A DNA stretch of 64,000 bases, from the NCBI GenBank assembly GCA_050084515.1, contig CM114271.1, positions 9,920,001 to 9,984,000 of the forward strand, in the 5' to 3' direction. Position 1 is the first letter of the stretch. Each line of letters begins with the position of its first letter. This DNA comes from Blasia pusilla (lineage: Eukaryota). Below are positions 12,301-42,822 of the stretch, piece after piece. The translations under genes and the position numbers were made by a program. The notes beneath the pieces are model-generated. The model did not search any database and had not been told where the DNA came from. It saw only the letters and a program-made list of their open reading frames with translations.

Positions 12301-15300
12301 CCATCATCTCTACTATGCAACGCCTTTCTGCTCTTCTTGACCTGCATAAAATCATTTACATCATACGGCATCTTGCTAGATAAGGGCAACTGATCAACAC
12401 TGTTGTAGCAGGGTATGGGTAAACTCTCTAGCTTCAGGCCATAAGAAGCTAGATTTTTCTCATCACCATCATTTGGCTCATTCTCAGGCTTTGTCAGTAT
12501 GTTGGTTTCTTTCATCTTGGTGGCGTAAGTATGCTTTAGTGCAACACTTGCACATAGACAGTCATCCAAACTCTTGTGGCCCTCTGCGGAAAAATTCCTC
12601 ATGTTCTTATCAGAACTTGGAACCTTTCCCAGTTTTTCCTCTTCGTCGACTACCCATTTCTTGGTCTTCAGCTTTCGCTTCGCCGTAACTGTACTCTCAC
12701 CTACTCTAATATCCAGATTTCGTGACCTCCTTGAGGCAATAGGCTGCTTTTCACAGACTCCTGCTCTCCTAACTTTAACCTTACTTCTTTGGTCAGGACC
12801 ATCACCTACTCTATCAAAATTAGTCTTTCCAAGGCTCACACTTCTCTTTCTTGGCAATTCACTTTTCTGTGGTTTAATTGCTTCGCCATCTACTGCTACA
12901 TCATCACAAACTGGTAACACCTCAGAGCCCTGCCATTCTTTATAACCCGTAGTTTCCATCCTCAGTCTCCGTTTTGCCTGCGGCTCACTTAAGACTTGTG
13001 CACTGTTTCTTGGCATAGGATGCATCTCCTGCATGGCCATTTTCCTTTCAGAGTCAGATTTCTTCCTGGATGTCTGCTTGCTGTTTGGATCATTAGACCT
13101 GCCATTGTATGAGAGATCGACACTGAAGGGCATTTTCTTGAGTTTTAGTAATTTCCTGAGCATACTAGACTTAGGTCTCACTTTAATGGAGGTCAAAGTG
13201 ACTGGTGACTGGTCAGATGAGGTTGACGAAGGTCTGATGGCAGTCTTTGATTCTGGAACATCCTGCTTCACCAGAACAGCCAAATCTTCGATATAGTTGG
13301 TTTTCTTCAATCTCAAACACTTTTTGTTTTGCACTCTACCATCATCTTCTTTGCTACAACCCAAGGCAAATGAAGACTGGTCAGAACTCTTAGATTTCTT
13401 TGAGAGCAACTTCTCTGGTTTCGATCCAGATAAGTGCAGTTTACCCTTCCAGTGAATGGGCTTTGAAGAACATGAAGCATTCCTCATTTTCTCTGCAGAA
13501 TCCTTCAAATGTACATCACCACCAACGTCATCAAGACATGACCCAACCATGACTTTCTCAATGCGCCCCCCATCAGGACCGTGTGATGGACGAACTTCTG
13601 CATGTAGATCTGCTTGGGAGGAGGATTTCTGTTTGTCTGGAGTAGAATCCTGCATACAAGGTACACTTTATATCACCAATGTAGCACATCCCAATAACCA
13701 AGAACCATACCTGGTACTTGCATAAATAATTGCAGTCATTGCTTTCTTTTCCATTACAAGGTTAAGAGCAAACACATGAGAACCTACCAAAGGTGTAGAA
13801 TGTGTCCCTGGGCTATTGAAGAACTCTTCCAAGCCCAGTGATGCATGTAGCTGAGAAACTGGACGTGACTGCCAAAATGGACTCACATAGTGACTTGCTT
13901 TCTCAAGTTTGGTAGTTGGCAATGTAGGATTCTGTACACGATCAAAACCCGGAGGGCATGATAAACAGTCTTCATCTCTTGATTGAACAATGTTCGGGGT
14001 ACTCTGTAGGATGATGTCACTAACCTGAACAGCACATCGGACAGGAAAAAAGAAAGTCTTTTCTTTCAAACACACACAAAAGTCCCTCATGAAGCACATC
14101 ATCAATACAACACTCTCCATAATACTGAAGAGGTTTAGACATTACTGCACAACACCGAGAGTGCTCCTTCAATATGATGTCTTGATGTGTCCAGATTCTT
14201 ATCTACTAACCAAGCAGGGTTCATTCAAATATTTGATGGAGCCATACAGGAATAAGTTCCAAGAATTTTCCAGCCTCTTTCAACTCCAAGGAACATACCT
14301 CCCTCGTGCCACACAAAGAATCCCCAACCTCATTCACTGGTGTGGGCACAGACTTTCCTGGGTGGCCAGCTCTCAAGTCATTTCTTCTCTCAAAACCAAT
14401 CAGAGGGCCAGCTCCTTCATCAAATCTCTCTCCACAAAACTTTTCTGAAGAAAACCCTCTTTCTGCACATTCATTGATTCCATGATCGTGCCTTGCTGTT
14501 TGGCCAGATCGTTTCTCCATCTCATGAAATAAAATACCATTTTGCATCATTGAGACTAGATTTTCTAGACGTGTAGGTTCCAGACGTGCATGAACATCAT
14601 GAATCTGCACAATGATCCAACAAACAGTCTTCCATTATTTCAGAGAAAACACACTAATTGCAATTACAAAGCTCGACTCTCTGATATCCACACAACGAGA
14701 GCTGACAGGTAGCTGACATACACGCAAATTGTCATTATCACAAGCCAACAGCATTCTCCCTTGAAATTTCCCGGAAACGCAGCCACATTCAAAAAGCAAC
14801 CAAAAGCCTGAGAAAAATCACCCAACACAATAATTCGAATAATCATGTTTGGAGTCATGCTAACAAGTTGGATAATCCAACTAGACACTTCAAGAAAGAT
14901 ACTCTGCTCAATACCTCCAAAGACCCATAAAGGTGACCAAAGTGTAACCAATGCAGAAGCTGTGAGAGACAAAATGGACCTTCCATACCACCTAGTCCCC
15001 CATATTTCCACCTGAGCTCCCTCCAACCCTGCAACCATGAGTTATCAATATTCATGGTAGCAGAAATTCAAAACTAGTTTTCAATAAGATTTGAAAACAG
15101 AAAACATTACAAAACACAATTAGCATAGTGCATCCTCTCCACATTCTTCTTTCAATTAGAGTCCAAAACCACTTCCAGTTGCCAGTGAATGCCACTGACA
15201 CACCCATATCCTAGAATATCAATGTCAAAAATTAGTCATAAATCAAAATACCAGAGGCAAGAAAAAAAATACAGTGATCAATACCTGGTCCTCATGTTGG

Positions 15301-16770
15301 AACCCAATTTCATAGCCTTCAGCAACTGTGAAGCTTTGAGCTGGCATCGGTGGCCTTCCACCTATGCCTGCTTGAGACCCTGCAGTAGAATCTGGTGGTG
15401 TGCCGTTTGTAGCAAGATAAACTGGTAACCCTTGCCCATGGGAAGGTACCAAGGCGTTATTATTTGGAAAAAACCTACCTCCAACTGGTGGCCCCCCACC
15501 ATAGCTGGGAGGTCTTTCATGGGAGGAAAGAGATGTGTTCTGTGAAAGAACCCCCCAAGGTGGTCCACCAGGAACAGACACAAACGGTGGCACTGATGGA
15601 ACATTTCCAGAAGAGGAACCATGGAACCCAGGAAAACACCACGATTCGGATCCTGTATGTGAACCAAATGGAAGAGTTGAATTTCTTGAGCCAGGATGTG
15701 CAGAAGGAAGGTGAACAGGTACTCCTGACTCTACCAATGCCGGTGATGTTGCACCAGGGTATTGCATTACAGAGTTCTTGCCATAACACCCGCCAGCCAC
15801 ATTGATCTGTGTGCATGGAGGCAAATATGGCATGGGCTGCTGGGCAGTGCTCATTGGATAACCTGGCTGTAAATTAGTTTTCAAAACCAAAGAGGGCTGC
15901 CCTGTATAATAAAATTTTCCAGCTCCTCCTCCATCAACAAGGACCTTCAGAGTTTTCACAACATCCTTGCTACCAACATGGAAAACTGGCAAATCTTCTG
16001 GCAAAAACCCACAACTCATCCCATCCGCAAGCTGCTTCAATGGGTAAGGTCCACTCATGCCATTATTATTATTGCTATACATCCAAACCGCTGATGTCCA
16101 GTAGGATGGAGATCCTGGAAACAAAGGCAATTCTTCACTCTTATAGAATGCTTTTGACTCTTCCGTTGGGCCATTTCTTCCATGTTCCTTTTCCCAGGCC
16201 GATAGGGTAGAAGCGAATCTGGTCACATTTCCTGGTCGTTCATCAAACGAATGCCAACTGAAACCACTGTTTTCTGGGCAGTACATCTCCACAGGGGAAC
16301 TGTCACATCACATGATACAACCATACATATTAAGTTGTTAATTGTGTCTTTCTGGTCATCACTTGTCTCCCTCTCGCAAATGGCAATAAAGTGGAATAAA
16401 AGATGAAGTTTTTGATAAAATATCAAAACCAGAGCCCACAACTTTAAAACCGAAATTTAAAGTTGTGGGCTCTGGTTTCAATAAAGAACCGAATTTTCCG
16501 GAAAATCTTTCATCAATTTTAAAGAAATTTCAAGGAACCATCAATTTCAGGCTTGAAATATCTGGTGTTTCAAACAAAGTACCTCTCAATCTCGTTAGTT
16601 TCCTTCAAAGTAAGCCCACTTCCCAGTTCTCTGACTCTTTCACTTTCAGAAGAGTCTTTGTAATTCTCCATAGAACTCCAGTGAGGATTGTGAGCAACTC
16701 TTCCCGACTGGTTCAGATCCACAACTGGACTATCTGGAATCTCCATCACTTTCTTGGCATCACTGCCATG
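9399..16770 (-). CDS. ATXR7: SET1-class histone H3K4 methyltransferase, ATXR7/SDG25 type, multi-exon (5' boundary uncertain)
   Basis: Two GYF-like exons ([43 protein letters not shown]). N-SET region [15 protein letters not shown] and [31 protein letters not shown] exons [18 protein letters not shown]...[34 protein letters not shown], post-SET CCCGSSR. Final mini-exon CRGFMN-stop at 9420-9399. GT/AG boundaries seen. Confidence 0.92.
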
Positions 16771-17304
16771 TAAACTGGCCTCATAAGTAACCCAGATCTT
16801 TTCCGCTGGCTACACAACCAGAAAGACAAAGATTACTCACTGGTAGTCTAGAGAACCACAGCATTATGAATGCAAATCTTACCCTATAGAAACAAAAGTT
16901 CCCAGAGTTGTGCAACACTTGAGAGTGCCAATGGTGACACAATACCCCAATTTCTTCCCACCTAACAGCACCAAACACACGTGAAGAACATACAACATGA
17001 AATATGCAGGAAAAATTCCCTGGATGACAATGATAATGATTGCAGCAAATATTTGGCAGGTTCCAAGATGGAATGCTCACTGATTGTCATGAAAGGAACC
17101 CCAATATTTAAGAGGAAAGAAATTGCCACCAAAAACTCTGTTACTCTATATCCAATCTTTGAGCAGGTCGAACTGTGAGGTGGGTTGGAGTGTTCTCTTG
17201 GATTTCTTCTTGGTTTTCTTGATTTTGCATGTGGGAGGGAAATGATAGCCTTAAAACCTCTGGCTAGTCCTTTACTATTGGTAACTTCCATGGCAATTGA
17301 TCAT

Positions 17305-19346
17305 CTATGTGACATTAAAAGTGAGCAAGTTATTAAGTACCTCTGAACGCCCTTTACAGTTCACTGACTGATCCTGGTCAGGCCCAGAAAGGTCCACCTG
17401 AATTGCTACAGCTAATACTTTCACATCTGGTGGAGAGCGACCTGTCATGAAGGATGGAGACACAGATATCCCTGGAGGGTTTGAGAGTTCCACAGTCGAT
17501 TTCTCTTTAGCAATTTCTCTCTCACTTGAAGTTCTTGACTTTAATGGTAGGATTTCTGCGTGCGTGCCCTCACACTCGTCAATCTTGTGTACGGTCCTTG
17601 CACTCAAAAATGAACTATTGCTCACAGTCCTGAAGTCCACCCCATCACTCAAAGCCACACAATCCCCTGGAAGCCTCTTTGAGAAAGGACCAGATTGGCT
17701 GTTCGCCTGCAAATGCAACTAAAATCTGGTCAGAAAGGGTTTCAGGCCAATAAGCTCACTAATTCAATTGCAAATAGAATCTAGTGACAAAATAATAGAT
17801 AAGACAAGTGTCACGAAAGTAATTACCTGAGTTGGAAAAGATAACCTTGAGAAAACAGATCCAGACCTCTTTGCACTGGCACTCAATGAGTCATCTGCCA
17901 TCAATAACCACCACAAAACTGGTGCCAGTGAGTAGACTACAAACATAAATGAATGTATGTCATCCACTAACACCAAACTACAATTGGAAAGAAAATTAAA
18001 ACTTGGGTTTTGACTAGCTAAACAGACGAATCGTTGGTCCATATGGGTAAGACACAAGTGAGAAGCACTCAAAGAAAATAAGACTTCTACCCTGGTGTCA
18101 CAAACAGAAACATCGCAACAGATAAAACATACAATAAGTTAAAAAGAGTCAGAATTTCACACTTATAGACACACTTAAAGCTTGGATAAAATGTTAACAA
18201 TAGGAAGGTTCATTAATGCATACCATCTTGGGACTCTTCAAAGGTGGACCACATGCGCTTTAAGATCTTCTCTCCATTTCTGCTCTTCTCTCGATTGTTT
18301 GTACTACAGAGTCTGCATATTGAAAGAATCACTGATGACCTCCTTCACATTTTGAGTGACGTCCCAATATTCCCCTCAAGTTGGCAGCATCATCAAGACC
18401 TACTGATGTGCAGCTATTCACATGGTGATAATCCAGAAGCCAGAAAAGTCCTCTTGCTCATATTTGTGTGGATCCCATGAGAATTACTTGGTTGAACTCT
18501 ACTACAATGAGAGAAAGCCTGAATTGCTGAGGATTTTGTGAACTCTACCGAAAGTAAATTAGAACTCAGTACTCATTTGAGACTCGTCAACTCAACTTGG
18601 AGAGCTCCTTGACCATATGTAGCCTGTGACTTCTCCCACTGGGAACCTGGTATTATTCTTTCACTCAGAAGGGAAAAAGCTTACCTGGTCAAAGGATTCA
18701 AGGGGTAGCACAGGTCGTCCGGCTCATTTGAAGTATCCCCATCCTGAAATTGACTGCAAACCTGTACAGACGGATGCTGGAAATAATTATCAGTACAGGA
18801 ATTGCTGCCAAGTCGACCACGTAATTGACCCATTTGTCTCTTACTCTGCTTGTCTCTGTAATTTGTACCACCTTTGGGAGGAACAGACTTCTCTTCACGT
18901 TTCCAGATACTATCGGGTGGTGGTGATTGACGATAAGCTCTGCCTCTATCATTCTTGAAATTTGAATGGTATCTTTCCCCAGGGTGACCACAGCGTCCAC
19001 TCTCATCCTTTGTGTAACACTCCTCTTGATGAGCCTCTTGGCTGGCCTCTCTACTCCAACTTCTACCTCTGGAAGAACTCTGGTTCAATAAATAATATTG
19101 TTTCCGTTTCTCTGCTCTGCTCTCCGGGAGTCCATCCTTCCAGTTATGATTCCGACCGCTATTTCTACCACATGGTCTTTCAACCGGTCTCCAGTACTGC
19201 TGGCTATCCACCATATCCTGCGACTTGGAACATTTGTCTCGAGCTTCCGTATCCCCCTGACCCTCACGCTCTGTTCCAATTTGAATCTGATCGTCATCAC
19301 CCGCCCATAATTGCCACCTGTCTGTGATCCCAGCTTCGCCGTTCAT
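17305..19346 (-). CDS. Upstream low-complexity coding exons: 5' part of the ATXR7 locus or a separate gene
   Basis: ATG-initiated ORF 18681..19346 preceded by a TTTTTCAG acceptor and ending at a GTAAG donor. Further open stretches at 17827-17901 and 17305-17718. No recognisable domain. Confidence 0.5.
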
Positions 19347-21012: not shown

Positions 21013-21232
21013 TGTCACGTCTATTAGGATAGATCGACGAGATCTAGTAGAGGGCCTTCGGAGATACTGGAGGACAGCCTCAAGAGGTCGAGGATGACAT
21101 GATGATGCTGCCGTAACCTGAGAGAGCATGTTTCCCCTTCGTTTCGGCTCATTTGGAGCCATATTGAGGATCTTATTATTTTGGGTAAATTACCATTTAT
21201 GATATAGTTTACTTTCCACTTTGGGAAGTGGT
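21013..21232 (+). repeat. Older 'A' terminal repeat, left part; resumes at 32386-32523 after the nested element
   Basis: Starts TGTCACGTCTATTAGGATAGATCG, like 21233. Broken at AAGTGGT; the continuation TGGCCATTGACCCAC...AAGAGCCAAGGAGG starts at 32386. Confidence 0.8.
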
Positions 21233-23529
21233 TGTCACATCTTTTAGGATAGATCGATGAGATCTAGTAGAGCGCCTTCGTGAGTAGTGGAGGACATGCT
21301 CAGTAGGTCGAGGATGACCTGTTGAGGCCCCGAGAAACCAGAGAGAGCAGGTTTTCCCCTTCGTTTCGGCTCATTTGGAGCCATATTTAAGAACTTACTA
21401 TTTTAGGTAAGTACCATTTTGAATATATGTTCAACTTTCTATTTTTGGTAAGTGGCCCTTGACCTCCTACATCAGGTCAAGAGCCAAGGAGGTGACTTGG
21501 GAGCATAGGTTACCATGGAGAGAGTTTGGGAGAGGGGAGGGGTATACCTCAAGGAGAGAGAGCTTGAGAGCTCATTCTCTCTTTGTTGAACCTCTGGGCA
21601 TAAGGCGACGGAGCTATGGTCCCTTGCCTTGTGAATGTAACCCAAGGCTCTCATTAGGAGAGTGGGTTTGGTTTGACATGAGAGAGAGTGCACACCTTTG
21701 AGAGCTATGGTGTGAGATGGTGTAGAGAGAGATTGGATCTTACTTTACAAAGAGAGAATGAGAGAGTGAGAGAGCTTCATGGGGAAGCTCGCTGGTCACT
21801 CATTGTTTTTGCAGGTTGGGGACCGTGTTCCCTGTTCAACGGCTCATGGGAGTGCTCACCAGAGCAAGGGTTGCTTTGATTGTTCTTTGCATTTGCCGAT
21901 TTTTGGTGTGGAATAGTGGCACGGGAAGCGCTTCCCAATTTCTGATAGGGATTGATTATGGGGGCGGGTTGCCCCATGTCGGCGCTCTTGGGGGCACCAT
22001 GTAGCTTGCTGATTTTTATTTTTATAGGTTTTATATTTTTGTTGGGAGAAATCGGCGAGGAAGCACTGCCAAATTTGTGTAGGAGAAAAAGATATTGGAC
22101 TTTACGGCAGTCCCTGTTAGTTTTTACTGGAATGTTCGATTCTAAATATTTTTTCGCATTATTGTAGATCGTAAGTTGTGCATGCTCTGCAACAAACAAT
22201 GCGCAATTTGGAGTTGTGAGCAAAAAGTTATGGTCAATCTTGCAAAACTCCCATTGCTAGGCGATTTTTAGGGTTAAATTGTTCAAACCCTAAACCAGCC
22301 GCCACGCCGATGGCGGCCGTCACTGTAATAGTCGCCGTCAATGGTCAACCGTCACCGTCATCGGTCGACCATCATCATCAATGGTCAATCGTCACCGTCA
22401 ATGGTCCACCGTCTGTTGTCCACCCTTTGGTTGCCATTGCCGCCATTACGGAGTGGAGGGTCTTCCACGACGTTCGTTGATTCTCTGACTTGCGTCGCCA
22501 CCACGTACTTTGTTTTGGCCTCCACCATCATCGTAGTTTCGTCATCAACCAGTGATGGTAGATGATCTCAGGTTATGGTGTTTGAGTTTTGATTTCATGC
22601 TGCTATGTTGTGATTGGTAGCCGTTCGACAACGATCAAGTATCGTGCCGTGACGCCCGTAGCCGCAACGTGCCGTCTGTTGCTGCGCCGTGCCGCTCGTG
22701 GCCACACCACATCGTCTTGATCATGGAACCACTCCTTCACTAAGGAGCAGAGCGTGTGAATTTCTAATTGAGGAGGGTATGCCGCCGAGTGCCGTGCTGT
22801 TTGTAGTCATTTCGTGCCCCTAGTGCCTCCTCAATGTGCGGTGTAGGTCGACCTACACCGCACATCGAGGAGGTTAAGCAGCATCACTACGAGAGGAGTA
22901 CGACTTGCTGATTGGAGGAGTTGTCTTCAGAACCGAGTTGGGGTCGAGATTTGCAGTTGTTGAGGAGCGACATCGACATGTGTTCAGGTTACCCATTATG
23001 GTCCTCTACCCTGCACGTGTGAGGGATTCTGGGATTTGAGTAGTTTATTTGGGGATATTGGGTTGTGTGGATGCTGAGATCATCATTCATGTATGTGGTT
23101 TAGGGGACATAGACATGTGTGGAATGTCCGGAGTTGAGGTTAGGTTGTCGATGAGATGATAGCCTGGTCGATTTGCTGCACCACGCCGTGTGTTGCCTCA
23201 CGTTACACGTCTCGGGGAGGAAGAGTGTAGATCGAGTGCCACATGTTTGGGATGAGTGATTGAGGGATTACTCACGAGGTTGAGAGTGATCAGGTGAGAG
23301 GGGCACGAGGGTCATCACGGCATCCATTCGGGACTTTGAGAGGCGAGGTGGTGCACCCGAGAGTAGCTCTAGAGGTTTTACACGGAGTGGCACGAGGTTG
23401 CGAGGGTCTCCACGTGAGGGATCCCCTCGACCTCCTTCTGTGTCATCGTAAGACAAGGGGGAGGGTGTAGAGGAGTTTGTGAGCACATCGCCACACATTG
23501 TGCGTGGTCCTACTAGTTGGGCGTACGAG

Positions 23530-24432
23530 ATGGACAACCAGGGTGGAGGACCGCGTAGGTTTTTAGGTGCAGTAGGCACGATTGAGTTGCACGATTTCAT
23601 GGCAGAGTTTAGGAGTTGATGCGACTCCCAACAGGCTAGGAACTCTAGAGAGTTCAACCCGTTTACAGCACGGAATGGTATGTTCCAGCATTTAGAGGGG
23701 GCGCCCATGGACGATTACCATGAGTTCTCCCACAGATATGCCCAAGAGATTGAGGCATGGCGACTCTACTATGACCCACACTATGTGTCATGGACAGAGT
23801 TGTTCCCAAATGAGGAGGAGGAGTCAGGAGAGGCTACTTCCTCTTCCACTAGTGATGTTTTATGAGGGGTCACTCGCAATGGAGTAGTTGCACCATCTAG
23901 TCGGGTTTGTCCCAAGTTCAACCCCATGGTTGAGTTCTTCGCTGAGTTGAGAGCCAGCTACCAAGGGGTACGGACGGTGAAGTTGCGGAGCATCCACGAC
24001 TTCCAGAGGCGCCCGGGTAAGAGTTTACGTGAGGCTTACACTTGCTTGCGTCGGTTGATCAACGTCACTCAAGGATGACGGAGGCTCAGGCTATCCAATC
24101 ATGGTACGCGATGTTGGACCGGACCCTGCGGACATGGACTCCGAGATAGGTCAACTGTGGCACCACGAGTTAAGGGAGGATACTGGGAGGCCGTGCCACA
24201 GAGATCTGCGCCTTCATATGCGGCTCAGCAGCAGCCGCCTACTATTACTTGTTGGTCATGTGGTGGAGCTCATCATCAACGTGATTGCACTCGTCAGGGT
24301 CATGGACATGCGCCTCAGCAAGGAGGAGGAGATGGTGCTGCATCGGGAGGTTACCAGTGTGACTATTGTCAGAGGTATGGTCATACACGCGCCAAGTGTC
24401 TCAGTTTACATCCTGAGTTACGTCCGGACTAA
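23530..24432 (+). pseudogene. gag with two CCHC zinc knuckles
   Basis: CWSCGGAHHQRDC and CDYCQRYGHTRAKC in ORF 24157..24432; the upstream reading frame is broken by stops. Confidence 0.8.
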
Positions 24433-26070
24433 GGGCCAGAGAGGGCACCAGAGTGAGTAGTCAGTCCGAGTGGGCCTAGAGATCGTGCACCAGGTAGTCC
24501 CGTTGGGGGACGAGGAGCTGGAGTTGCCCGACATGGTGGTGGAGCTGCCCGTTGAGGAAGTAGAGTACCACCACCTAGACACGCCAAGGGAGACGTTGGA
24601 TGTGAGGCTAGGATGGCTGCTCAGATATAGCAGCTACAAGAGCAAATTACCGCTATGGCATTGAGGTTACCCAATGCCGGATCCGTGGCATCGACATCAT
24701 ATGGAGCAGCCAGAGATGTGGAGAATCTTGGTTGGATGTGCGGGGTTGCCAAGATGGAGGCCGCCGCAATTATGACGCGTGGATCAGCCATAGAGTTGGA
24801 TCCACAACGAGGGGAAGCCAGAAGCTTTCACGTTGTCTGAAGCGATGAGGACCCCATCGATGGGTCCTCATCAAAGTTCCTGGAGAGTTGGTGATGTTGT
24901 TGGTGTGCAGGCACAGAGGGCAATGGGAGAAGCAAGTGCGACGACTCCAATTGTTGATGCTCATGAGGGGCATGTGTCGAGCACATTGTTGGAGGCGGCC
25001 ACCGTTGTGTACCCCGCTCCTTTATTTTCTGCTTCCAATATTATGACGTTGGGGGATACGCCCGCCGAGGCTTTTCGGTTGGCCGCTTCACTATGTGAGC
25101 GCGGAGTTGGAGTTCCTGCATCACGTTTAGAGGTGATTGCAGAGGAGGTGATGGACTTGCCCTTGGAGCGGATGCTCGGGCCGTCCACGTCAAATTCATG
25201 GCAGGTTGTGGCTGCTAGGATGGCGGAGACGCCCGCTAGACCTGCGATAGAGCGTGCCATGGCTTCTCCTGGTGTTGTGTTGCTGGATAACCCAGGAGAG
25301 GTCTTCCAGTTGGTGAGTCCCGGAGGTAGAGCTTTTAGTCCACAGCGTGTCTGGTTGGATTCAAGAGCGCAACCCCTGATGTTGGGGAAAGCGTCATTCA
25401 GAGGATTGGGCTTGACGAGAGCTGATATGGAGCGTTGTCCATTCTAGATATAGACATCCTTGGATGGAGCGATTACCACACAGTATATCACCCGACATGA
25501 GGTCATGGTGAGGATTCGCCCGGGACATCCTACAGATGAGTCCGTGGTACGAGCCAAGGCGATAGTGATTGATGCACAGTCCTAAGACGTCTTGGTTGGT
25601 GGAGCAGTGTTATGCTCAATGGGGTTTTCCCTAGATTACTGGGAGAAGTCAGCATCCTACGGACCAGAATGGCAATCAGGTGATGGGCGCCTTAGCTCAT
25701 TACCCGTTTGATTCACAAGTGCAGTGATCGAGCGACGGCCAGTAGAGGTGGCGACCTTAGCAGCATTTAGCAGTGCCATCACTTGGCCTAGTGATTTGAT
25801 TGAGGGACATGTCCATGCAGAGGATACTCCCGTTCCTGACATTTCTATGGAGAGGAGTGTTATGGTAGTCGCATCATTCCGTGGAGGAGAGGTGCCATTG
25901 TGGGGCTCAATTGAGGAGCTTCGACGATTGGCAGATGAGCACCTACAGACCGCGTGGAGCGAGGCATTTGCACCGAAGCGTGATGGGTCTGAGGAACCCA
26001 AGGTAGCACGGAGTGCTACAATGATACCCTTGGATATCATACCCATTGTGTGGTGTATCTCGGAGGAAGG

Positions 26071-27010
26071 TATTCGAGTGTTAGATCTGCTTGGAGGGAT
26101 TAGCACCGGGTTAGCTGTTGTTTTGCAGGCAAGAGTGTGAGTGCAACAATACCTGTATGTGGAGAGTGATGATGTTGCGAGGCGTGTCTCACTACCACAT
26201 GTGGCGCAATTACGCCTACGTTTTCCCGACTTATTGTCTACATGTGCGGTGCAGGGGTACCAGAGTTCCCTACCGAGGGATATTTTGTTGTTGGGGGCGC
26301 AAGACTTAGAGCGGATAGGGACCATTGATTTGGTCATTGCCGGTTGGCCATGTTAGGGCCAATTGAGTGTTGGACGAGGCAACGGGTTGGATGACACTCC
26401 ATCCAGGTTTTTTTGGGAGATGTTGAGGGTCTTACGGCAGTTGCAAAAGCACGTGTCTCGTTCTCTAGCCTACATTCTGGAGAATGTGCCAATCTTAGGA
26501 CGACTCCAAGTCACGGATGGTGACGAGTGCTCATCAAGTGCGTGCATGGATTGGCCCAACAGTGTTCTTGGATGCGGCGAGTGTAGGTTCTAGAGCCCAT
26601 CGCCCCCGTCTATGGTGGACCAACTTGGTGCCCCATGCGGTGTTACGGAGGGCGTTTGCGAGAGTGGAGCACCCCTCCCATTTGTTAATGGATTCCATTC
26701 TGGATCCAGGTCGTTGATCATAGGCAGTGAGGCACGATGATCGACCACCATTGATTGTGGTCAACAGGGTAGGCAGGCCGCGGGCAGCCTTGCCCACGGT
26801 TGTGAGTTTTCCCGCTTCCTATGCATACAAGAAGGCCGATCCTCGCTTGGTTTGGGATGACTAGGTTCAGCATTTGGTGGAGCCCATCGCCGATGAGAGA
26901 GAGCGAGCGATGGGATTTCCCACATGAGTGACGGCAGTACCGTCAGTGTTTGAGGATCACGACGCCACATCTTGGGTCAAGCGATGGACCTGAACTGCTT
27001 GACATGGATC
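26071..27010 (+). pseudogene. DNMT3-like C5 cytosine DNA methyltransferase domain inside pol
   Basis: Motifs in canonical order: I IRVLDLLGGISTG; IV IDLVIAGWPC*G (PCQG with CAG>TAG); VI YILENVP; VIII DAASVGSRAHRPRLWWTNL; IX ERERAMGFP; X ILGQAMDLN. Confidence 0.92.
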
Positions 27011-30000
27011 CTCATCTTGGGAGTGGCTGAGCAACGCCGTATGAGATCGCAACAGGTCACAACGATTGCGTTGGTGAGCCCCATGCCTACCAAGACGGTG
27101 GAGGCAATGGTTGGGGGCGAGACCCGAGGAGATCTACACACCATGGGAGATCAGGAGAGACGCCCTTGGACTTCTTGGGATGTTTTGCAGGTACGCCAGG
27201 AGATGATAGCCACATCATCGGGAGTAGTTCCAAGCACTGCACGTGGAGGAGATCAGAGTTTGCGGTTGGCTGCAAGAGAGCGGCAAGATGTTGTTGTTTG
27301 AGACGGGGTTGCACCATAGCAACCACCGATACCCGCGTCGGAGAGTCCTATTGTAGTCATGATGAAGACTTGGGAGCCAGATACAGGCCCTAAGTTGACA
27401 GGAGGAGAGCGGCGCCAGATATATAAGTTCCTCAGGAGTTATAGGAGTTGCTTTGCGTTTAGCATGGAGGATTTGGGTACGCTAAAGGGACCGAGGATCC
27501 GCATTGAGTTGTCGAGTGATACGCCAATCTTCCGACGACCCTATAGGTACATTGATATGGAGAGGACTCTGATTCAGAGTAGGAGCCAAGACTTGGTCAG
27601 AGCAGGATTAGTGGAGATGTCGTATGGGGAGTATGCATCTGCCACTGTCATGCTCGCCAAGAAGGATGTGCATGGCAACTGGACGGATAGGTGGATGTGT
27701 GGGCATTACCGACTTATCAATTGGTAGACAAAGTCCGATAGGTATGCCATGCCCATCCTTGAGGAGATCTTTGATACGATTGGTCACGCAAAGATCTTCA
27801 GTTCATTGGATTTGCGAGCCGGATGCCATCAACTGCCTATCAGATTGGAAGAGAGGCAGAAGACGGCATTTTGGGGCATCAATCCTCACAGGAAGGATTT
27901 TTTGTACCAATGGTGGTTCTTACCATTTGGATTAAAGAACGCCTCGACGCAGTTTTAGAGGGTCATGGATAGGATCTTGGTTGGTTTGGATTTTGTTAGG
28001 TGTTATATTGATGACATCATAGTCTTTAGCGCCATGGTTGAGGAGCATGAGGAACATCAAGAGGAGGTATTTCGACGATTGCAATTACATGGGCTGAATC
28101 TACATCTAGGCAAGTGCAAGTTCTTTTACGACCAGATTGAGTACTTGGGTCATACGATATACCCAGGGGGCCTTGGTGTTCAGCAAACGAAGGTACAGGC
28201 TATCTTAAGCATTCCACGCCCTGTAGATGTGAGCCGTATTCAAGCATTCATGGGATTGGCAAACTTCTATCGGCAGTACGTTAAAGGATTCATTTTGATT
28301 GCAAAGCCGCTAACCTTTCTAACCAAGGTGGATCACGAGTGGCACTGGGAGGATGAGCAAGAGCGAGCATTTTAGTTGCTGAAGGAAAAGTTGACGTCCG
28401 CACCCATCTTGAGGAGACCGATTAGGGGGCATCCTTTCCAATTGCACATAGATTGGAGCATGTTGGGGCTTGGAGCGGTGCTCACCCAGCATGATGATGA
28501 GGGTAGAGATTTTGTGGTGGCTTACGCTAACCGCTCGAATAACACTGCACAGGCAAAGTACATCTCGTATGAGGGTGAGTGCTTGGTTGCAGTATGGGCT
28601 GTCGCGCATTTCAGGTGTTACTTATTCGGCAATCCCTTTACCATCATCACTGATCATCAACCATTGAAGTGGTTGATGGAGTTCGACAAGCATACACGGA
28701 AGCTTCCGATATGGGCTCTGTTGTTGCAGGAGTATGATTTTCACGTGGTACATAGACCTGTGACTCAACCAGGATGTAGATGGGTTGAGTGGTAACCCGT
28801 GCCCGAGTCAGCGAGATGCGACTAGAGCTCGATGGCATGGAGAGAGTGATGAGGAGTCAGTGCCAAGATGGCACGCGTTAGCCTATTTAGGCATGTTGGC
28901 TATGGAGAGCCAGAGTGTGGAGACTTCGATGGCGAGGTCTAGTGGAGAGTCCTTGAATCCCAAGGCCAATGAGGAGACGACAAGTGGCCGAGATATTCAT
29001 GATGATGGAGTAGTCTTGGAGTACCTTCGTACTGGCACTGTTGCAAGCACGGTGGGTGCTAGAGAGCGAGATCAGATCCTACAACGGGCCAGAAGATTTC
29101 GTTGGGAGGGGACACATGTTTTGAGGGTTTGGGAGGATGGTAGAGTATGCGTAGTGCCGCATCCTTCGCAGAGAGCACGACTAGTGCAGCATGCCCACGA
29201 GGAGTTGGGTCCCTTTGGGGTGAAGCAGACGTACAACTTGCTTCATATTGAGTTTTGGTGGCGAGGCATGCAGACTAACGTTCAACAGTTTGTTGCCAGG
29301 TGCATGGTGTGTGATCGGGTCCGAGCATCATTCAATGCTCCGACTCCACAGTTGCATCCATTATCAATCATGGGCTTAGGGTATAGATGGAGTTTGGATT
29401 TTGCAGGACCTTTGCCTTTGACGGAGCGTCACAGTCATTATGTGTTGGTGATGGTCGAGCACTTCTCTAGTGGATCGAGTTGGTTGCATTGCCTGACAAA
29501 GCGAGTGAGGGAGTAGCTTATGCCTTCCTTGACAGAGTGCTGAGTCATTATGGCACACCGGCTGAGGTGTTGATAAACTAGGGTATCGATTTTCGCGATG
29601 AGTTCCAGGCCTTGTGTGATCAGGCGCTAATCGACCACCGCACCACTTCGCGAGATCATCTCGAGGCGGATGGATTAGCGGAGAGAGTTGTGCAGACGGT
29701 GAAGAGGGGTTTACGTAAGTATGGCTTGCAGAGAGGTCACCTAGGAGATTGGGACCTCCAATTGCCGTGGTTGGCGATGGGATACATATGCAGCAAGCAG
29801 GCATCCTTAATGTCTTTTTCACTGTACTTACTACTTTATGGCCGAGAGCCAGATTTACCTGCAGCCATTCGTCGAGATACTGGTGAGGTGCTAGACCTCG
29901 ATGACCCAGATGTATGGATACGAGCATATTCTCAGAGGGCTGAGTTGTTTTGGAGAGTGATGCCTATGGCATTCGAGAACTTGGCGATTGCGTAACATCG

Positions 30001-30289
30001 GGATACGTTGAGGTATGCAACTATTCGGGGAGGTGATTATCGACCTACTATCCGGAGGTTTCATCAGGGAGACTATGTTTACTTGCAGTAAATGGCACCC
30101 ACAACGTTGGATGTGACTTCTGGACACACCATCTTGAGAGTGCGTGAGGTTTTGCCATGCCGTGTTCTCTTATAAGAGGGACGCGATGGTATGGTTTGGA
30201 AGGACCATGTGCGTAACTGCGCGCTATATCGTCTTCCGAACATTGACGGTACAGTTGATCCGAGCTTAGCAATAGTTCTTGTAGGCTTA

Positions 30290-30430
30290 CGGTGTATGTT
30301 GTGTGGTTCCGCCCGTGGTGCAACCACTATGCTAGTATGTGATGGGTTTTCGAGAGGATGGCATATGGCATGTTTGATGCCACATCTCACTAGGGTTCCT
30401 CAGAGACGATGGATGTGTCCCATATGTACA
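30290..30430 (+). other. PHD finger at the integrase C-terminus
   Basis: CMLC...MLVCDGFSRGWHMACL...VPQRRWMCPIC: a C4HC3 pattern with one Cys replaced by Phe. Confidence 0.88.
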
Positions 30431-31064
30431 TAGAGTAGGTAGTTCTACATTCTCACTTGTGTCTGTGACATGGATGACAAGAAGGCGACTAACGATGGGG
30501 CCACATGAGCACCCGGCCTTCTTGCTCTTAGCGTCCGAGAGATGTATGTCATGGTAGGTAGGGATAGATGGCTATCTCGAGTTAGAGGGACCTAACCACC
30601 AGCTAGGGGGGCGATTGGAGATATTTTGGTACTTCTTGTCTCGTTGTTTGGATGCCATGAGTTACCATGGGATCGTGCGTATTTGTGTGTGTGTTCGGTG
30701 ACAGCGATGTATGTTGTGTAGCGATGTGTATGCGCATGACAACTGTCATGTCTTTTAGTATAGATCGGTGAGATCTAGTAGAGCGCCTTCGTGACTAGTG
30801 GAGGACATGCTCAGTAGGTCGAGGATGACCTGTTGAGGCCCCAGGAAACCTGAGAGAGCAGGTTTTCCCCTTCGTTTCGGCTCATTTGGAGCCATATTGA
30901 AGAACTTACTATTTTAGGTAATTTCCATTTTGAATATATGTTCAAATTTCTATTTTTGGTAAGTGGCCCTTGACCTCCTACATCAGGTCAAGAGCGAAGG
31001 AGGTGACTTGGGAGCATAGGTTACCATGAGAGAGTTTGGGAGAGGGGAGGGGTATACCTCAAGG

Positions 31065-32068
31065 TGTCGCGCCCCTACTCTCCTTGAATTTCAATCTTTA
31101 GTGTTGCGGAAGCGTACGTTTAGTAGGTCACGATCTCATCGCCGATCTCCACCCAAACACACACTCTCGTTAGTCGGGTCTGGGCCAACCAGCGTTCCAA
31201 CCCACCGAGTTCTCAACTCGGCGTCTCATCAAGCTCAACCTCCCTAAATTCCTAGTTTCCAAAACATGGCAAGTCCTTCAAGACTTGGAACAAACTTCCT
31301 GATTAGTCCAGGAACCTAAAATGGCACTTGCGCGCCTAGCGATCCCAACTGTTCAACGGAACTTGTGCGAGTTCCAAACTGAGACCCAATTAATTGAGTC
31401 GCAGGGTGAAATCCAAGAGTGATGTCTAAAATCGCCTCCGTAGACTGGGTTCAGGTTTCCAACCCAACCCCAAACTCTCGATCCGTTCCATGCCCTTGAG
31501 CCGCCCCATGGCGCCCAAAGTGGGGTTCGAGTTCCAAGCACTCTCGGAGACCTTCCCCCTTACTAGTACTTCTGGGGTTCTCCAATAACCCCCCCGCCCT
31601 TTGGAAAAGGAGGGTTGGGCCCTTCATTGTGGCCCTCAACCCGACTCTACTTACAGTCGTTTCCGGGTTGTTTCTCAGCCATTGCTTATGCGTTTGCAAA
31701 GATCTTTAGTGCGTTTGAACCATCTTTCCATAAGTCTTCCAACGCACCCTTGTTCAATCAAAACGCATCTTAGTGCTAAAAGTTATGGCCATAAATACAG
31801 TCAGAAACTCTCAAACGCTAGTGGCGTTCCAAATGCGGATTCTTCCTTTGGCAACCCACTTCCTAGACTCAACTCCTTGCAAGTCTTGTTCCGCGTTTGG
31901 TCTCAGTTTTTCAGTTGCAACCATAACATCTGAAATACGAAGCCTCGCTTGCGTCTCGTCTCTTGTCTCTTCTTCGAGACCACTCCAACACGCAAACCAT
32001 CTTAGCGTGAGCCCGCTAATATTCCGATGTTCCGCTTTGGCACTCGTTTGGTCATGAGGGTCGGGACA
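31065..32068 (-). mobile_element. Chromovirus solo LTR inserted in repeat A2
   Basis: Reverse complement of 2343-3340. Perfect 5-bp TSD CAAGG at 31060-31064 and 32069-32073. Confidence 0.95.
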
Positions 32069-32561
32069 CAAGGAGAGAGAGCTTGAGAGCTCATTCTCTC
32101 TTTGTTGAACCTCTTGGCATAAGGCGAAGGAGCTATGGTCCCTTGCCTTATGAGTGTAACCCAAGGCTCTCATTAGGAGAGTGGGTTTGGTTTGACATGA
32201 GAGAGAGAGTGCACACCTTTGAGAGCTATGGTGTGAGATTGTGTATAGAGAGATTGGATCTTACTTTATTGGAGATATTTTGGTACTTCTTGTCTTGTTG
32301 TTTGGATGCCATGAGATCGTGCGTGTTTGTGTGTGTGTTCATTGACAACGATGTATGTTGTGTAGCGATGTGTATGCGCACGGCATGGCCATTGACCCAC
32401 TACAGTAGGTAAAGAGCCAAGGAGGTGATCTGTAAGCATAGATTACCGTGGAGAGGGCTTGGGAGAGGGAAGGGGGTATACCTCCAAGAGAGAGAGCTTG
32501 AGAGTTCATTCTCTCTTTGTAAATCCATCAAATATCTCCATCAACAAGCTCTCCATAGTGT

Positions 32562-32595
<34 letters not shown>

Positions 32596-32597
<2 letters not shown>

Positions 32598-33020
32598 GTC
32601 AACCCAAACCCACTCTCCTAATGAGAGGCTTGGGTTACACATTCAAGGCAAGGAGGACCATGACTCCGCCGCCTCATGCCAAGAGGTTCAACAAAGAGAG
32701 AATGAGCTCTCAAGTTCTCTCTTGGAGGTATAATCCCTTCCCTCTCCCAAGCCCTCCCCATAGTAACCTGTGGTCACAGGTCACTTCCTTTGGTCTTGAC
32801 CTGTTGTAGCGGGTCAAGGGCCACTTCCCAAAGTATAAGTCAACTATACCAAAAATAGTAACTTGCCCAAATTAGTAAGTTTCTCAATATGACTCCAAAT
32901 GATCCGAAACGAAGGGAAAACCTGTTCTCTCATGTCATCTGTGGCTTTAGCAGGTCATCCTTGACCTCTTGAGGCTGTCCTCCAATATCTTTAAAGGTGC
33001 TTTACTAGATCTCGTCAATC
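32596..33020 (-). repeat. Inverted copy of the 'A' terminal repeat
   Basis: Reverse complement matches about 21248-21680; preceded by a (CT)n run. Confidence 0.85.
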
Positions 33021-33044
33021 TACTAGGATAGATCGACAAGATGC

Positions 33045-33376: not shown

Positions 33377-34386
33377 TGTCGCGCCCCTACTCTCCTTGAA
33401 CGTCAATCTTTAGTGTTGCGGAAGCGTACGTTTAGTAGGTCACGATGTCATCGCCGATCTGCACCCAAACACGCACTCTTGTTTGTCAGGTCTGGGCCAA
33501 CCAGCGTTCCAACCCACTGAGTTCTCAACTCGGCGTCTCATCAAGATCAACCTCCCTTAATTCCTAGTTTCCAAAACATGGCAAGTCCTTCAAGACTTGG
33601 AACAAACTTCCTGATTAGTCTAGGAACCTAAAACGGCACTTGCGCGCCTAGCGATCCCAAGTGTTCAATGGACCTCGTGGGAGTTCCAAACTGAGACCCA
33701 AGTAGTTGAGTCACGGGGTGAAATCCAAGAGGGATGTCTAAAATCGCCTCCGTAGACTTGGTTCAGGTTTTCCAACCCAACCCCAAACTCTCGATCCGTT
33801 CCATGCCCTTGAGCCGCCCCATGGCGCCCAAAGTGGGGTTCGAGTTCCAAGCACTCTTGGAGACCTTCCCCCTTACTAGTACTTCTGGGGTTCTCCAATA
33901 ACACCCCCCCCCCCCTCTTTGGAAAAGGAGGGTCGGGCCCTTCATTGTGGCCCTCAACCCGACTCTACTTACAATCATTTCCGGGTTGTTTCTCAACCGC
34001 TGCTTATGCGTTTGCAGAAATCTTTAGTGCGTTTGAACTATCTTTCCATAAGCCTTCCAACGCAACCTTGTTTAGTCCAAACGCATCTTGGTGCTAAAAG
34101 TTATGGCCACAAATACAGTCGGAACCTCTCAAACGCTAGTGGCGTTCCAAATCCGGATTCTTCCTTTGGCAACCCACTTTCCAGACTCAACTCCTTTAAA
34201 GTCTTATTTTGCGTTTGGTCCAGGTTTCTCGGTCGTGACCATAACATCTGAAACGTGAAGCCTCGCTCGCGTCTCGTCTCTTGTCTCTTCTTCGAGACCA
34301 CTCCAACGCGCAAACCATCTTAGCGTGAGCCTGCTAATGTTCCGATGTTCCGCTTTGGCACTCGTTTGGTCATGAGGGTCGCCACA
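33377..34386 (-). mobile_element. Chromovirus solo LTR
   Basis: Reverse complement of 2343-3340. Perfect 5-bp TSD CCCCA at 33372-33376 and 34387-34391. Confidence 0.95.
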
Positions 34387-37443: not shown

Positions 37444-40400
37444 TCACTCGTCATCGTCTGAGAGCTCTTGCAATATTACTTTCCGCCTTGCCATTCCGAT
37501 TTTTGTAATCTTTGGAAGTGACGATGGTGTCACTACCAATGGTGGGTCTGGAATCGGAGCTCTTTGCTTCGGTGGAGAGTTGTACGCCCCAACGAACCTT
37601 TCGTATTCTGCCTTTGCCTCCTTGCAAAGGTCAAACAATTCCTATCTTCCCTCGAGGCAGAGAATGTTCCTGCCACTCTGCCAGGCGCCTTTGATACTCG
37701 CCCCTGAAAGTCCCACTAAGTCAAACACCAAGTCACCCGGCCTTGAGCAGAGCTCGATGAGCGTTTGCATCAGGGCTGGCAACTTTTCCCTTCCTCCCAA
37801 AAGTGGGGTACCATCTTGCATGTAAATTCCCAGGGGGGAATTGTACAAACTATCTAAGCTGTACCACTCTGAGCATGGATCCACAGGATCCTAGATCTTG
37901 AACACCTGGAAGTTGTGCTCATGCCGAACGAAGCAGTAAACGTAGGAGTGCTCCATCTGTAAAGAAGCACGTTGGAAAGAATGTCAACAACTTGGCATAA
38001 TGTGCAACACGTCACCAAAGAACTCCGCTTGACCCTAGAGAACTTTTTTCAAATACTAACATTGGAGCAACCTGTCGGAGTCGGACGGGTTGTTTTGTCC
38101 ATGACCCACCCGTTGGAAGGCGACAGGTTGCTGGCTTAGAGCAGCCCATGCTTATCGAGAGCAACCCGCCGCTGACGGCGCTTTTTTTCGAAACACAGGA
38201 AAAACCATAGTAATCGCAACCCGCCGGCGTTCCGACGGGTTGCACGTTCACCGGCGTTTTCCCTGTGTTTCTGAATAAGATCCGACCCGTCGGAAAGCGA
38301 CGGGTTGCTCTCAGCCAAGCATGGGCTGCTCTAAACCAGCAACCTGTCGCCTTCCGACGGGCTTCTCACAGAAAAAAACAACGGATATATACTATCTGGA
38401 GACAGGAATAGAGCCATACCCGAATCTGGCTCGTCGCGAATCGGAGTGGGTACTCGTTCTTGATGATCCACGATTGCGCCGTCCTCCACTTCAGCGACCT
38501 CTTGACGCATTGGAGGTTGAAAAGCTCGTCCTTGCTCCCTCCAGTCAACACTAAGAAGCAGCCCATGTCACTCAGATAAGCGTCTGCAAAGGACAACAAT
38601 AGCGCGATCTGGTCATAAGAGAGGGGAACATTCCAGTCAGGTACCCCGTCCGACGGATTCTTGTCCCACAATCGCAACCCCGAGGGCAGATCAGCGATCA
38701 ATAGATCCACTGCCACCTCTTCGACCATTCCATTCACCGTCCAGGGTGCGTGCCCGCTTCGTTGAAGCTTTCGTCCCAGCGTTGTCAATTTATCAATGGC
38801 GGGTGTCGACGCTTGAGAATTGAAACTTTTGAGCTCATCTAGTAAATTCGTGAACTGAAGGAGGACGCTTGTCCGGGTCGTTGTTTCTCTATGTCTTCCC
38901 AAGGATGATGGACTGTATTCTCCTTGGGACAACCCTGGCACCTCTCGCTTCCGCTTCTCCCGAGTCTGCGGTCGGCTTGTCGGGGTCTCTATGACCTCAT
39001 ACTCTGTGGAGTTTTTTTCGCGGAGGACCTGGTCCAACCCTCTCTCCCCGCTCGCCTGGACGATTCCGCCTCTGGCCTTGAATCTTTAGCCTCTCTTTGG
39101 GAAGACTCGGCCTCGGAATTCTTCCCTCCCCTCGCCTTGCCTTTGAGACCCGTTGTGGATTTGTCTTTGGTTGTGCGGACCTTTGAAGCCAACTCAGCTG
39201 TCTCGAGGGCTTGCTCTTTCGCATCTCCTCCGAAGAAGTCTTCAAGCTGCACAAAATTGGGGATGTCATCCCGTCGTGAGGCCACTACATCATGAAGCAC
39301 GCGTAAATCTTTCTCGATGATGTCTTCAGGGTGGTTGAAGTCTAGCCAAATCGGGCAATTCTCCACCTCCCAATCGGACATGTGCTGAGCCATCTCCGTA
39401 TCGTACATGGAGAATGTCTCTCCATCAGGCGGCGAAGCCCACAATTTCAAGGCTGCCGGTAATTTTCCCCAGGTACCTGCATTCTTACAATGCACGAGGT
39501 ACCTGAAGACCATCCGTTGGGCAGCTCTTAGTCGAACTGAATCGGTTGCCTGCTCCTGAAGATCTCTCTTCTTCTTTGCTTGATCCCGTTTGTTCCCCTC
39601 GATTTCTTTGTCAAGGTTTGCCTAAGGGAGGACGCAAACCTTCAACATCGTCTTGAATCTTGGGTTTTTGATGGGCTTGTCTCGGATGTCATCGAGCCAA
39701 ACCTCGAAATCTACAGCACTTTCCAGGTTTGCTTCATTCGGAATGGGCTCTAATCTTTTGAGCTCCGCTTGGAGACCGTTCAGCACGGACTTCCCTATAA
39801 CCCGCAACGCATCCCAAAATGACCATTCGTGGAGCCAGTGGGAGATCACTGGATCAGACACACCCGGAGGATGGTGTGCCGCTCTCTTCTGGGCCTCTGT
39901 GCCCTCGAGATTGATTTTCATCACTCGGATCCTCCTAAACTTGCTTATTCTGGACAACGCAAACCGATGCACACGATCTAGGGACACTTTCTCCCCAATC
40001 CGACCTTGCGGATCTTCATCCCTTTTCCGTTGGCGCTTGATAATCGCCTTCAGCTCCTTGTAAAACTCCGGACCAAGTTCGGGGTTGAGAATGCTGATGT
40101 AGCACTGCATCTTGCTTGCTGTGTATTTCGTGGCTGTAGATACTGCAGCTTTGATGAATTTCGTGCACTCAGACCCAGATACTTTCTCCCTCAGCTCCAG
40201 CTCCAGTGCAGCGCTCTTCTTCGCGGCCTGTATCTTCGACCAGCAAAGGATTGTTACGGCTGCATCTTGGGAAATAAACTTATTTGCCCAAGTCTTCTTT
40301 TTTATCTGTGCACCCTTTGCAAGCATCTCGATTTACCAGGCGTCGCTCAAGAACCCCTTGTACTCTGCCGGGTGCGTTGTAAGCACCTTCTTCACCCGAT

Positions 40401-42726: not shown

Positions 42727-42733
42727 ATTTATA
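42727..42733 (-). promoter_or_regulatory. Candidate TATA box of the ParB-methyltransferase gene
   Basis: TATAAAT on the minus strand about 280 bp upstream of the ATG at 42446. Confidence 0.55.
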
Positions 42734-42822
42734 ATTTTCTAGCCGTTGGGTTGACCGTTGGGTCCCGTCGTCCTTTCGACGGCGACATGCCGGCCGTTAC
42801 GAAAGTCCGGACGTGAAAAATG

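Follow-up and report, generated by a model that had tools for sequence, protein, structure and literature searches.

A DNMT3-type cytosine methyltransferase domain, probably inherited within a retrotransposon family, in a dead Ty3/gypsy-type element of the liverwort Blasia pusilla

It is puzzling that some retrotransposons encode the very enzyme by which their hosts silence them. In its available part, the study of de Mendoza et al. from 2018 (PMC5890265) describes retrotransposons bearing a DNA methyltransferase (DNMT) in Symbiodinium and Klebsormidium only, and its survey table lists Physcomitrella and Selaginella and shows no Marchantia entry there. The accessible passages of a 2025 paper (PMC12344493) and of a 2026 preprint (10.64898/2026.05.21.726589) speak only of 'streptophytes' and cite the 2018 work, and in the full-text literature searched, as far as its text was accessible, no retrotransposon with a methyltransferase is described from a liverwort or moss; the passages searched in Yaari et al. 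2019 (PMC6453930), PMC11982613 and PMC11244446 contained nothing that bears on the subject. KnitGypsy-Dnmt3 from Klebsormidium nitens, which we compare by its published description in the available text (PMC5890265), belongs to the gypsy type, encodes an unpermuted DNMT3-type domain within its coding region and has repeats of the DIRS-like A-coding-B-A-B form. SymbioDIRS-Dnmt3 from dinoflagellates, described in the same available text (PMC5890265), also bears a methyltransferase and has A-coding-B-A-B repeats but encodes a tyrosine recombinase, and 'EpiLTR' from Cymbomonas and Euglena (10.64898/2026.05.21.726589) carries, according to the accessible part of the preprint, a DNMT that is sister to DNMT4 and lies at the 3' end of pol.

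Here we analysed a stretch of 64,000 nucleotides from the liverwort Blasia pusilla (assembly GCA_050084515.1, contig CM114271.1, positions 9,920,001 to 9,984,000 of the forward strand), which we call the window and number from its first letter. A DNMT3-type C5 cytosine methyltransferase domain at 26045-27030 sits within a Ty3/gypsy-type element of about 11 kb (21233-32385), all features of which are given on the plus strand. The overall best explanation, to which we assign a probability of roughly 0.8, is that this is the DNMT3-type domain of a dead Ty3/gypsy-type element in a liverwort genome and that it was inherited within the element's family. The element shares the DIRS-like repeats of KnitGypsy-Dnmt3 and its gypsy-type coding region with an unpermuted DNMT3-type domain, but its host is a land plant, and its DNMT lies between protease (PR) and reverse transcriptase (RT), where it closes a first reading frame before an in-frame stop, as far as the two can be set side by side from the description of the Klebsormidium element in the available text. 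From SymbioDIRS-Dnmt3 it differs by a DDE integrase (IN), TG...CA ends and a 4-bp target duplication. With this find the known Gypsy-DNMT3 elements now include members from land plants and, judging from side results, from chlorophyte algae.

Six C5-methyltransferase motifs are encoded within the domain in the unpermuted order I, IV, VI, VIII, IX, X, as a first-pass annotation made from the letters alone had claimed for this place: LDLLGGISTG (motif I, 26081-26110), AGWPC (motif IV, 26339-26359), ILENVP (motif VI, 26474-26491), AHRPRLWWTNL (motif VIII, 26595-26627), ERERAMGFP (motif IX, 26895-26921) and LGQAMD (motif X, 26972-26989), all inside the interval 26071-27010 given there. The domain reading is based on a three-frame reading of 23500-30600 and on translations with X at stops, and the domain itself was recognised from three frame pieces, the motifs, Pfam and collinear relatives. 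The search with the Pfam DNA_methylase profile (PF00145) proposed in the first-pass annotation matched the N-terminal piece (26045-26605) alone with 25 bits against a curated cut-off of 22 (E 1.5e-5), and intact relatives reached 35.6 bits (the bryophyte protein P0004) and 51.1 bits (the metagenome locus L030). All pieces are collinear with intact relatives at 57-67% identity. Within 26045-27030 there are six in-frame stops and two frameshifts, with frame breaks at about 26500/26502 and 26953/26954, and one of the stops stands immediately after the Pro-Cys of motif IV; the window copy therefore cannot be active. Twenty in-frame stops are counted over all coding pieces of the element, and additional frame breaks lie in gag, at the junction of RNase H (RH) and integrase and in the interior of the integrase. 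The window copy of the element is dead.

By sequence and by predicted fold the domain is of the DNMT3 type, in agreement with the DNMT3-like wording reported in the first-pass annotation. A phmmer search of the PDB sequences with the Calypogeia protein as query gave DNMT3A (E 8.4e-11), DNMT3B (E 6.6e-10) and DNMT3C (E 4.8e-9) as the nearest solved enzymes, followed by DRM (E 3.9e-7 to 2e-4), HaeIII/HhaI (E about 1e-3) and DNMT2 (E 0.009), and no match to DNMT1 at E up to 1. With a family profile the DNMT3A match strengthens to E 1.9e-19. The AlphaFold model of the intact domain of locus L002 has a mean predicted local distance difference test score (pLDDT) of 76, with a core at about residues 41-380 that is mostly above 85, and in a Foldseek comparison of this model with the PDB only DNMT3A, B or C are found among the matches listed in the top 50 ranks, the best one being 6f57_D (E 5e-18, template modelling score 0.83 on the target). 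The element domain and DNMT3A/3B/3C share the motif order and a motif VIII of the AHRxR..W.N type, but they are only about 20-23% identical, the element domain is part of a Gag-PR polyprotein, and its gap between motifs VIII and IX measures about 100 residues, where DNMT3A has about 64. No PWWP or ADD domain was matched by Pfam in the window pieces or in the first frames of the relatives; these accessory readers of host DNMT3s, to which a DUF is added in land plants, do not define the DNMT3 catalytic family. An identity as DRM was considered and rejected: plant DRM2 is a streptophyte relative of DNMT3 and a weaker match, and in DRM motifs VI-X precede I-V, whereas the motif order in the window is unpermuted.

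To find relatives of the domain we searched protein collections. The N-terminal piece retrieved seven proteins, two of which are Marchantia polymorpha 'hypothetical proteins' with 65% and 61% identity. The intact Marchantia domain retrieved 67 proteins, among them 15 named M. polymorpha, one Calypogeia fissa, one Sphagnum fallax and one Monoraphidium neglectum; a Klebsormidium name does not occur among the named matches to the DNMT family. By tblastn the bryophyte proteins P0014, P0004 and P0038 are collinear with the window across gag, PR and DNMT and on into RT and RNase H, the alignment of P0014 spanning 24941-29126. Of the 104 family proteins examined, 45 have either gag or PR upstream of the DNMT or RT downstream of it, and the order gag-PR-DNMT-RT-RH-IN-PHD is common to Marchantia, Calypogeia, Sphagnum and many metagenome contigs. 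The first-pass annotation had asked whether the DNMT segment is missing from other family members or bounded by insertion signatures of its own; it is present and equally placed in all relatives with a PR or RT neighbour, and no break or repeat is seen at the domain edges. The DNMT is an inherited part of the retrotransposon lineage and not a chance capture. A scan of metagenome contigs from the Joint Genome Institute (JGI) yielded 313 encoding stretches among 600 pattern matches, of which 80 loci were retained for counts at the locus level. The clade is large: when 1.84 billion representative proteins were searched with a profile, 465 clusters were obtained at E up to 1e-30, and the best 150 of 12,898 library matches are all of element type, 86 with the algal order, 16 with the bryophyte order and 48 fragments.

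The algal order mentioned here is RT-RH-DNMT-IN-PHD, which is present in about 39 of the 104 family proteins and was confirmed by Pfam. To this algal and metagenome group (P0006-P0010, P0039-P0068) belong the 'pol' of Scenedesmus sp. PABB004 and the protein from Monoraphidium neglectum. Its DNMT is 33-42% identical to the present one and has the AHRxRxxWTNL and ERERAMG wording in common with it, its RT and integrase are about 35-45% identical, and a PHD finger follows the integrase here as well. It differs in that the DNMT is located between RNase H and integrase within one long frame and that several members lack the Pro of Pro-Cys. The family protein P0074, with the order DNMT-IN-PHD, is filed under a Spirochaetia metagenome-assembled genome and is probably mis-binned eukaryotic DNA.

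That such elements reach into the embryophytes, as proposed in the first-pass annotation, is borne out by the relatives in Marchantia polymorpha, Calypogeia fissa and Sphagnum fallax and also by the flanking gene. Only four proteins align with 93% of the large exon of a histidine-kinase gene that is located on the minus strand at 59906-61576. They belong to Marchantia paleacea, M. polymorpha (MpCache1), Riccia fluitans and R. sorocarpa and are 47-51% identical; other plants match just the conserved ends of this exon, and the host is by this gene a liverwort outside Marchantia and Riccia.

We also reconstructed quick maximum-likelihood trees of 72 DNMT domains and of 29 RT rows. In the DNMT tree a clade of 36 rows with a support of 99 holds all PR-DNMT sequences except the long-branched P0073, and the window is found inside a clade of 19 rows together with Marchantia and Calypogeia, again with a support of 99. 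The RT tree splits into the same bryophyte-order and algal-order groups, which lie on opposite sides of a branch with a support of 97. Comparing RT and DNMT trees, which the first-pass annotation had recommended and which here consist of element sequences, gives an equivalent two-group split with support values of 97 and 99. Judged by these trees DNMT and RT co-descend; which domain order is the older one is not deducible from them, as they are unrooted.

The first-pass annotation was right in describing a gypsy element with a DNMT between protease and RT, as shown by the LDSRAQP stretch upstream, by the RVT_1 and RT_RNaseH matches from 27320 downstream and by the collinear relatives. Its view of the enzyme as a part of pol has to be revised, as the DNMT is instead the last domain of an upstream Gag-PR-DNMT frame and is followed by a conserved in-frame stop. 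The order of gag with a CCHC knuckle, aspartic protease, RT, RNase H and DDE integrase is of the Ty3/gypsy type according to Pfam and tblastn. In the window a broken gag at 23530-24816 (tblastn to residues 1-466 of P0004/P0005; two stops and a frame break at about 24073) includes the CCHC zinc knuckle at 24358-24399. It is followed by a spacer and aspartic-protease region (24818-26040) that is collinear with the PR part of P0004/P0014 and contains the active-site stretch LDSRAQP at 25355-25375; across 14 relatives the D-S/T-G-A of the protease is almost invariant, and Asp_protease_2 is a weak Pfam match in the intact locus L030. Behind the DNMT come the C-terminal tail of the first reading frame (27031-27316), with one extra stop, TGA at 27302, that is one of the decay stops of this copy, and then the in-frame stop with its context TAG CAA CCA (27317-27325), a candidate read-through signal. 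RT, with YIDD at 28004-28015, and RNase H occupy 27320-28795 (RVT_1, RT_RNaseH and RT_RNaseH_2; three in-frame stops). The integrase at 28764-30292, its H2C2 zinc-binding domain preceding the core, is matched by Integrase_H2C2, is collinear with P0007/P0045 and has frame breaks at about 28760 and 29468. At its C-terminus a PHD finger (30293-30433; PF00628 at 30293-30427 with 34.6 bits against a cut-off of 24) is followed by the stop codon, and PHD fingers take the equivalent position in L030, L037 and the algal group.

Intact copies, which the first-pass annotation had suggested looking for, are represented by L030 and L037. L030 has a frame of 1369 amino acids (gag, protease, DNMT), one TAG and then an in-phase frame of 1047 amino acids (RT, RNase H, integrase, PHD), and L037 has the same layout with a single stop between two long in-phase frames; RVT_1, RT_RNaseH, Integrase_H2C2 and rve are all matched by Pfam in both. 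Seventeen selected metagenome loci contained no long frames. Many bryophyte-type proteins end 40-135 residues past motif X, and a stop followed by CAA or CAG stands at the equivalent place in 31 of the 62 sequences with an RT start, which are 61 metagenome loci and the window. The stop context is TAG CAG TTA in L030 and L033, TAG CAA TCA in L037 and L070 and TAG CAA CCA in the window. A stop followed by CAR-YYA is a classic leaky-stop context of plant viruses, and we take it as a lead only and not as a test.

This layout suggests a biosynthesis model in which a leaky stop would allow the DNMT to be made with every Gag-PR, while RT and IN would be made only on read-through. Gag-PR-DNMT would then enter the particle, the protease would free the enzyme, and the enzyme might methylate the element's own new DNA, in line with the proposal of de Mendoza et al. 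on algal elements. The PHD finger of the integrase could steer integration through the reading of histone tails. None of these steps is possible for the window copy itself. A profile of the integrase PHD from the family alignment, compared with the PDB, has its best matches in the PHD fingers of CHD4, KDM5/Lid, KMT2D, PHF12, PHF21A, ATXR5 and UHRF1, several of which read the unmodified histone H3 tail, and this offers a lead to the preferred integration targets. Chromoviruses likewise carry a chromatin reader at the integrase C-terminus, which is a chromodomain in their case and a PHD finger in the present element. It is a possible though less favoured alternative that the enzyme acts on chromosomal DNA and not on particle cDNA, marking the integration site or resident copies, for example in keeping copy number low or in mimicking host silencing. 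The PHD finger on the integrase is a chromatin-reading module, read-through would join the DNMT to RT-RH-IN-PHD, and in the algal group the DNMT stands directly before the integrase, all of which would fit such a role; if the stop is only leaky, however, most DNMT would be made without integrase.

The conservation of the domain bears on whether it would methylate DNA at all. In 14 bryophyte-type sequences with identities down to 33%, F.G...G, GWPCQGH, ENV, AH..R..WTN, ERERAMGF and L.Q..D are invariant, and AGW.CQ, EN and R.R...TNL are invariant in 15 sequences spanning the bryophyte and algal groups. The catalytic Pro-Cys has its Pro replaced in the algal-type proteins P0009, P0010, P0041, P0044, P0053 and P0068, which read GWECQD, GWECSD, GWDCSD or GWSCQD and keep the Cys and the remaining motifs; from their sequences these members may be altered or inactive enzymes. 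That the domain was kept as something other than a DNA methyltransferase, be it a nucleic-acid-binding or structural module, an RNA-acting enzyme, a pseudo-enzyme or a DNMT2-like protein, appears unlikely to us. The loss of the Pro in several algal members would agree with it, as would the only published test, in which the Klebsormidium Gypsy DNMT did not methylate in yeast, a result that its authors call inconclusive in the available text (PMC5890265). Against it, the bryophyte group shows no variation in PCQ, ENV, the arginines of motif VIII or any other catalytic motif in 14 of 14 sequences, and the nearest solved relatives are the DNA enzymes of the DNMT3 type, DNMT2 being far weaker.

Several points weigh against our reading of the domain and its layout, to which the yeast result has to be added. 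The two C-terminal DNMT pieces of the window, searched singly against Pfam, gave no match. Most copies are broken, as an unbroken DNMT stretch is present in only 6 of the 80 metagenome loci and frames of at least 600 amino acids in only four of them (L030, L037, L046 and L050). Among the 31 stop contexts 26 are TAG or TAA followed by CAA CCC or CAA CCT, which is not the full CAR-YYA pattern, and read-through of the UAG stop is deduced from its position and context alone. A third subgroup from the metagenomes (L045-L078, for example L050 at 10739-13279) has the order PR-DNMT-RT and no stop within 150 codons upstream of RT, and the two-frame layout is therefore not universal in the family; P0073 and P0215 also have the DNMT before RT in a single frame. 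Both trees are quick, unrooted searches without host DNMT3 or DRM sequences. The ratio of nonsynonymous to synonymous substitutions (dN/dS) could be measured for three pairs (L030, L033, L037) and lies at 0.12-0.15, as under purifying selection, but these pairs are not independent of each other and come from a sister clade rather than the liverwort clade; for KnitGypsy-Dnmt3, the catalytic residues of which are kept, the available text gives a Ka/Ks below 0.2 (PMC5890265).

The transcription data have to be read with similar care. In three RNA runs of one study all 30 bins are covered in 3 of 3 runs with a strong strand bias: one strand reaches a depth of 7-49 in the DNMT bins and the opposite strand 0-4, where the call of the sense strand assumes the usual stranded library type. 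The reads are mostly 90-95% like the window and therefore derive from sister copies, which shows transcription for the family and not for the window copy in particular. At or beside each of the five frame breaks of the window copy the reads are longer or shorter by one or two bases, so the transcribed relatives are not broken at those places.

The ends of the element were analysed in the window and by self-comparison of nine metagenome loci with long flanks. The window element has the layout A-coding-polypurine tract-B-NN-A-B with TG...CA termini and a 4-bp target duplication, and a plain structure with two long terminal repeats (LTRs) was rejected, as the repeats are split in the A-coding-B-A-B manner. 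Repeat A1, the 5' long repeat with the start TGTCAC (21233-21747), is 96.3% identical to A2 with a Kimura two-parameter distance (K2P) of 0.038. The polypurine tract (AGCTAGGGGGG region, 30603-30612) lies directly 5' of B1 (30614-30741), which ends with ...GACA, is 94.0% identical to B2 and is separated by two bases (30742-30743) from A2. A2 (30744-32268) consists of 30744-31064 and 32069-32268, and B2 (32269-32385), ending with ...ACGGCA, forms the 3' end of the element. The unrelated repeat of about 1 kb that interrupts A2 at 31065-32068 has further copies at 33377-34381 and 2342-3346 (minus strand) with 88-93% identity, starts with TGTCG, has AAGG on either side of the insertion and looks like a solo LTR of another element. 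The left copy of the target-site duplication is TGGT at 21229-21232 and the right copy TGGC at 32386-32389, where the halves of an older related repeat overlap. The element is nested in this older repeat, the halves of which (21013-21231 and 32386-32520) abut with the 4-bp overlap TGGT/TGGC, and the mobile unit is therefore 21233-32385 with the terminal B included. Older relatives of repeat A surround the element at 21013-21231, 32386-32520 and, inverted, 32587-33022, with about 82-86% identity.

Among the nine loci A1/A2 are present in six (L002, L035, L038, L050, L054 and L066) and B1/B2 in five (L038, L050, L054, L035 and, as a stretch of 29 nt, L066); L016, L046 and L053 showed no long repeats by self-comparison, and L002 terminates inside A2. 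The window, L038, L050 and L054 agree in having a polypurine run, in the loci an equivalent G-run, directly before B1, TGTCA(T/C) as the start of A, CA (GACA or GGCA) as the end of B and two bases between B1 and A2, and their 4-bp target duplications are TGGT/TGGC, CATA, GGTC and CCAA, respectively. Inside the element the inverted termini TGTCATG...CATGACA meet with two bases between them. A standard tRNA primer-binding site after A1 was not recognised by eye in the window, L038 and L054. One may imagine for such an element a DIRS-like cycle that begins with the production of B-A repeats by reverse transcription and leads to a circular DNA, which the DDE integrase would cut open at the internal CA-NN-TG junction. 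Taken together, a lineage of land-plant and green-algal retrotransposons with its own epigenetic kit, a DNMT3-type enzyme in Gag amounts and a PHD integrase, and with a DIRS-like cycle run by a retroviral-type integrase could be envisaged, although we consider this complete picture doubtful.

With the structure of the ends and the copy number in hand, it is very improbable that the annotated Marchantia genes and related ones go back to a domestication of such an element by the host, with the window showing a pseudogene from among them. The Marchantia relatives are indeed annotated as ordinary protein-coding genes, but the window copy possesses repeats and a polypurine tract, ends in TG...CA and is flanked by a 4-bp target duplication, and the family is highly repeated in the DNA of one sequenced organism, from which 13,891 contig pieces match the internal region of the element, 1,925 of them at 99% or more. 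In Marchantia polymorpha at least 15 differing copies are spread over many chromosomes and scaffolds. That the DNMT is an accident of this one copy, with a piece of a host DNMT3 or of another mobile element having landed in a gypsy element, can practically be dismissed. The window copy is badly decayed and nested among repeats and no second DNMT lies in the window, which would fit such an accident, but the DNMT is equally placed in 45 proteins from several bryophytes as well as in metagenome contigs, the trees of DNMT and RT are in agreement, and the PR-DNMT-tail-stop-RT alignment continues without break or repeat at the domain edges. A second DNMT copy was sought in the complete 64-kb window, where the sole relative is a gag-only fragment at 47099-49087, with DNA 76-84% identical to 23244-24887, that ends before protease and DNMT.

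The remaining window contains other mobile DNA. At 838-1653 the integrase C-terminus (Tf2-type SH3) and chromodomain of an ordinary chromovirus are encoded, and a Ty1/copia element with RVT_2, integrase and a retroviral SH3-like domain is located at 51675-55612. Several long open frames of up to 554 amino acids without Pfam match are present on both strands at 38366-45336, with repeated peptide-like units (…VGLRRVA…) at about 40670-43635. The observed/expected ratio of CpG is 0.74 inside the DNMT-bearing element (21750-30600) and 0.35 in the host-gene flank (5000-19000).

In summary we have described a family of DNMT3-bearing retrotransposons that is present in liverworts and a moss, is transcribed and has many annotated but unremarked copies in Marchantia polymorpha, which brings it within reach of plant genetics and methylomes. 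The layout of Gag-PR-DNMT, a conserved stop and RT-RH-IN-PHD predicts the amount and the destination of the enzyme, and the way in which an element with split repeats and integrase-type ends would replicate is a problem of its own. If the complete picture of an epigenetic kit and a DIRS-like cycle were true, element DNA that is already methylated would be delivered to chromatin chosen by the PHD finger.

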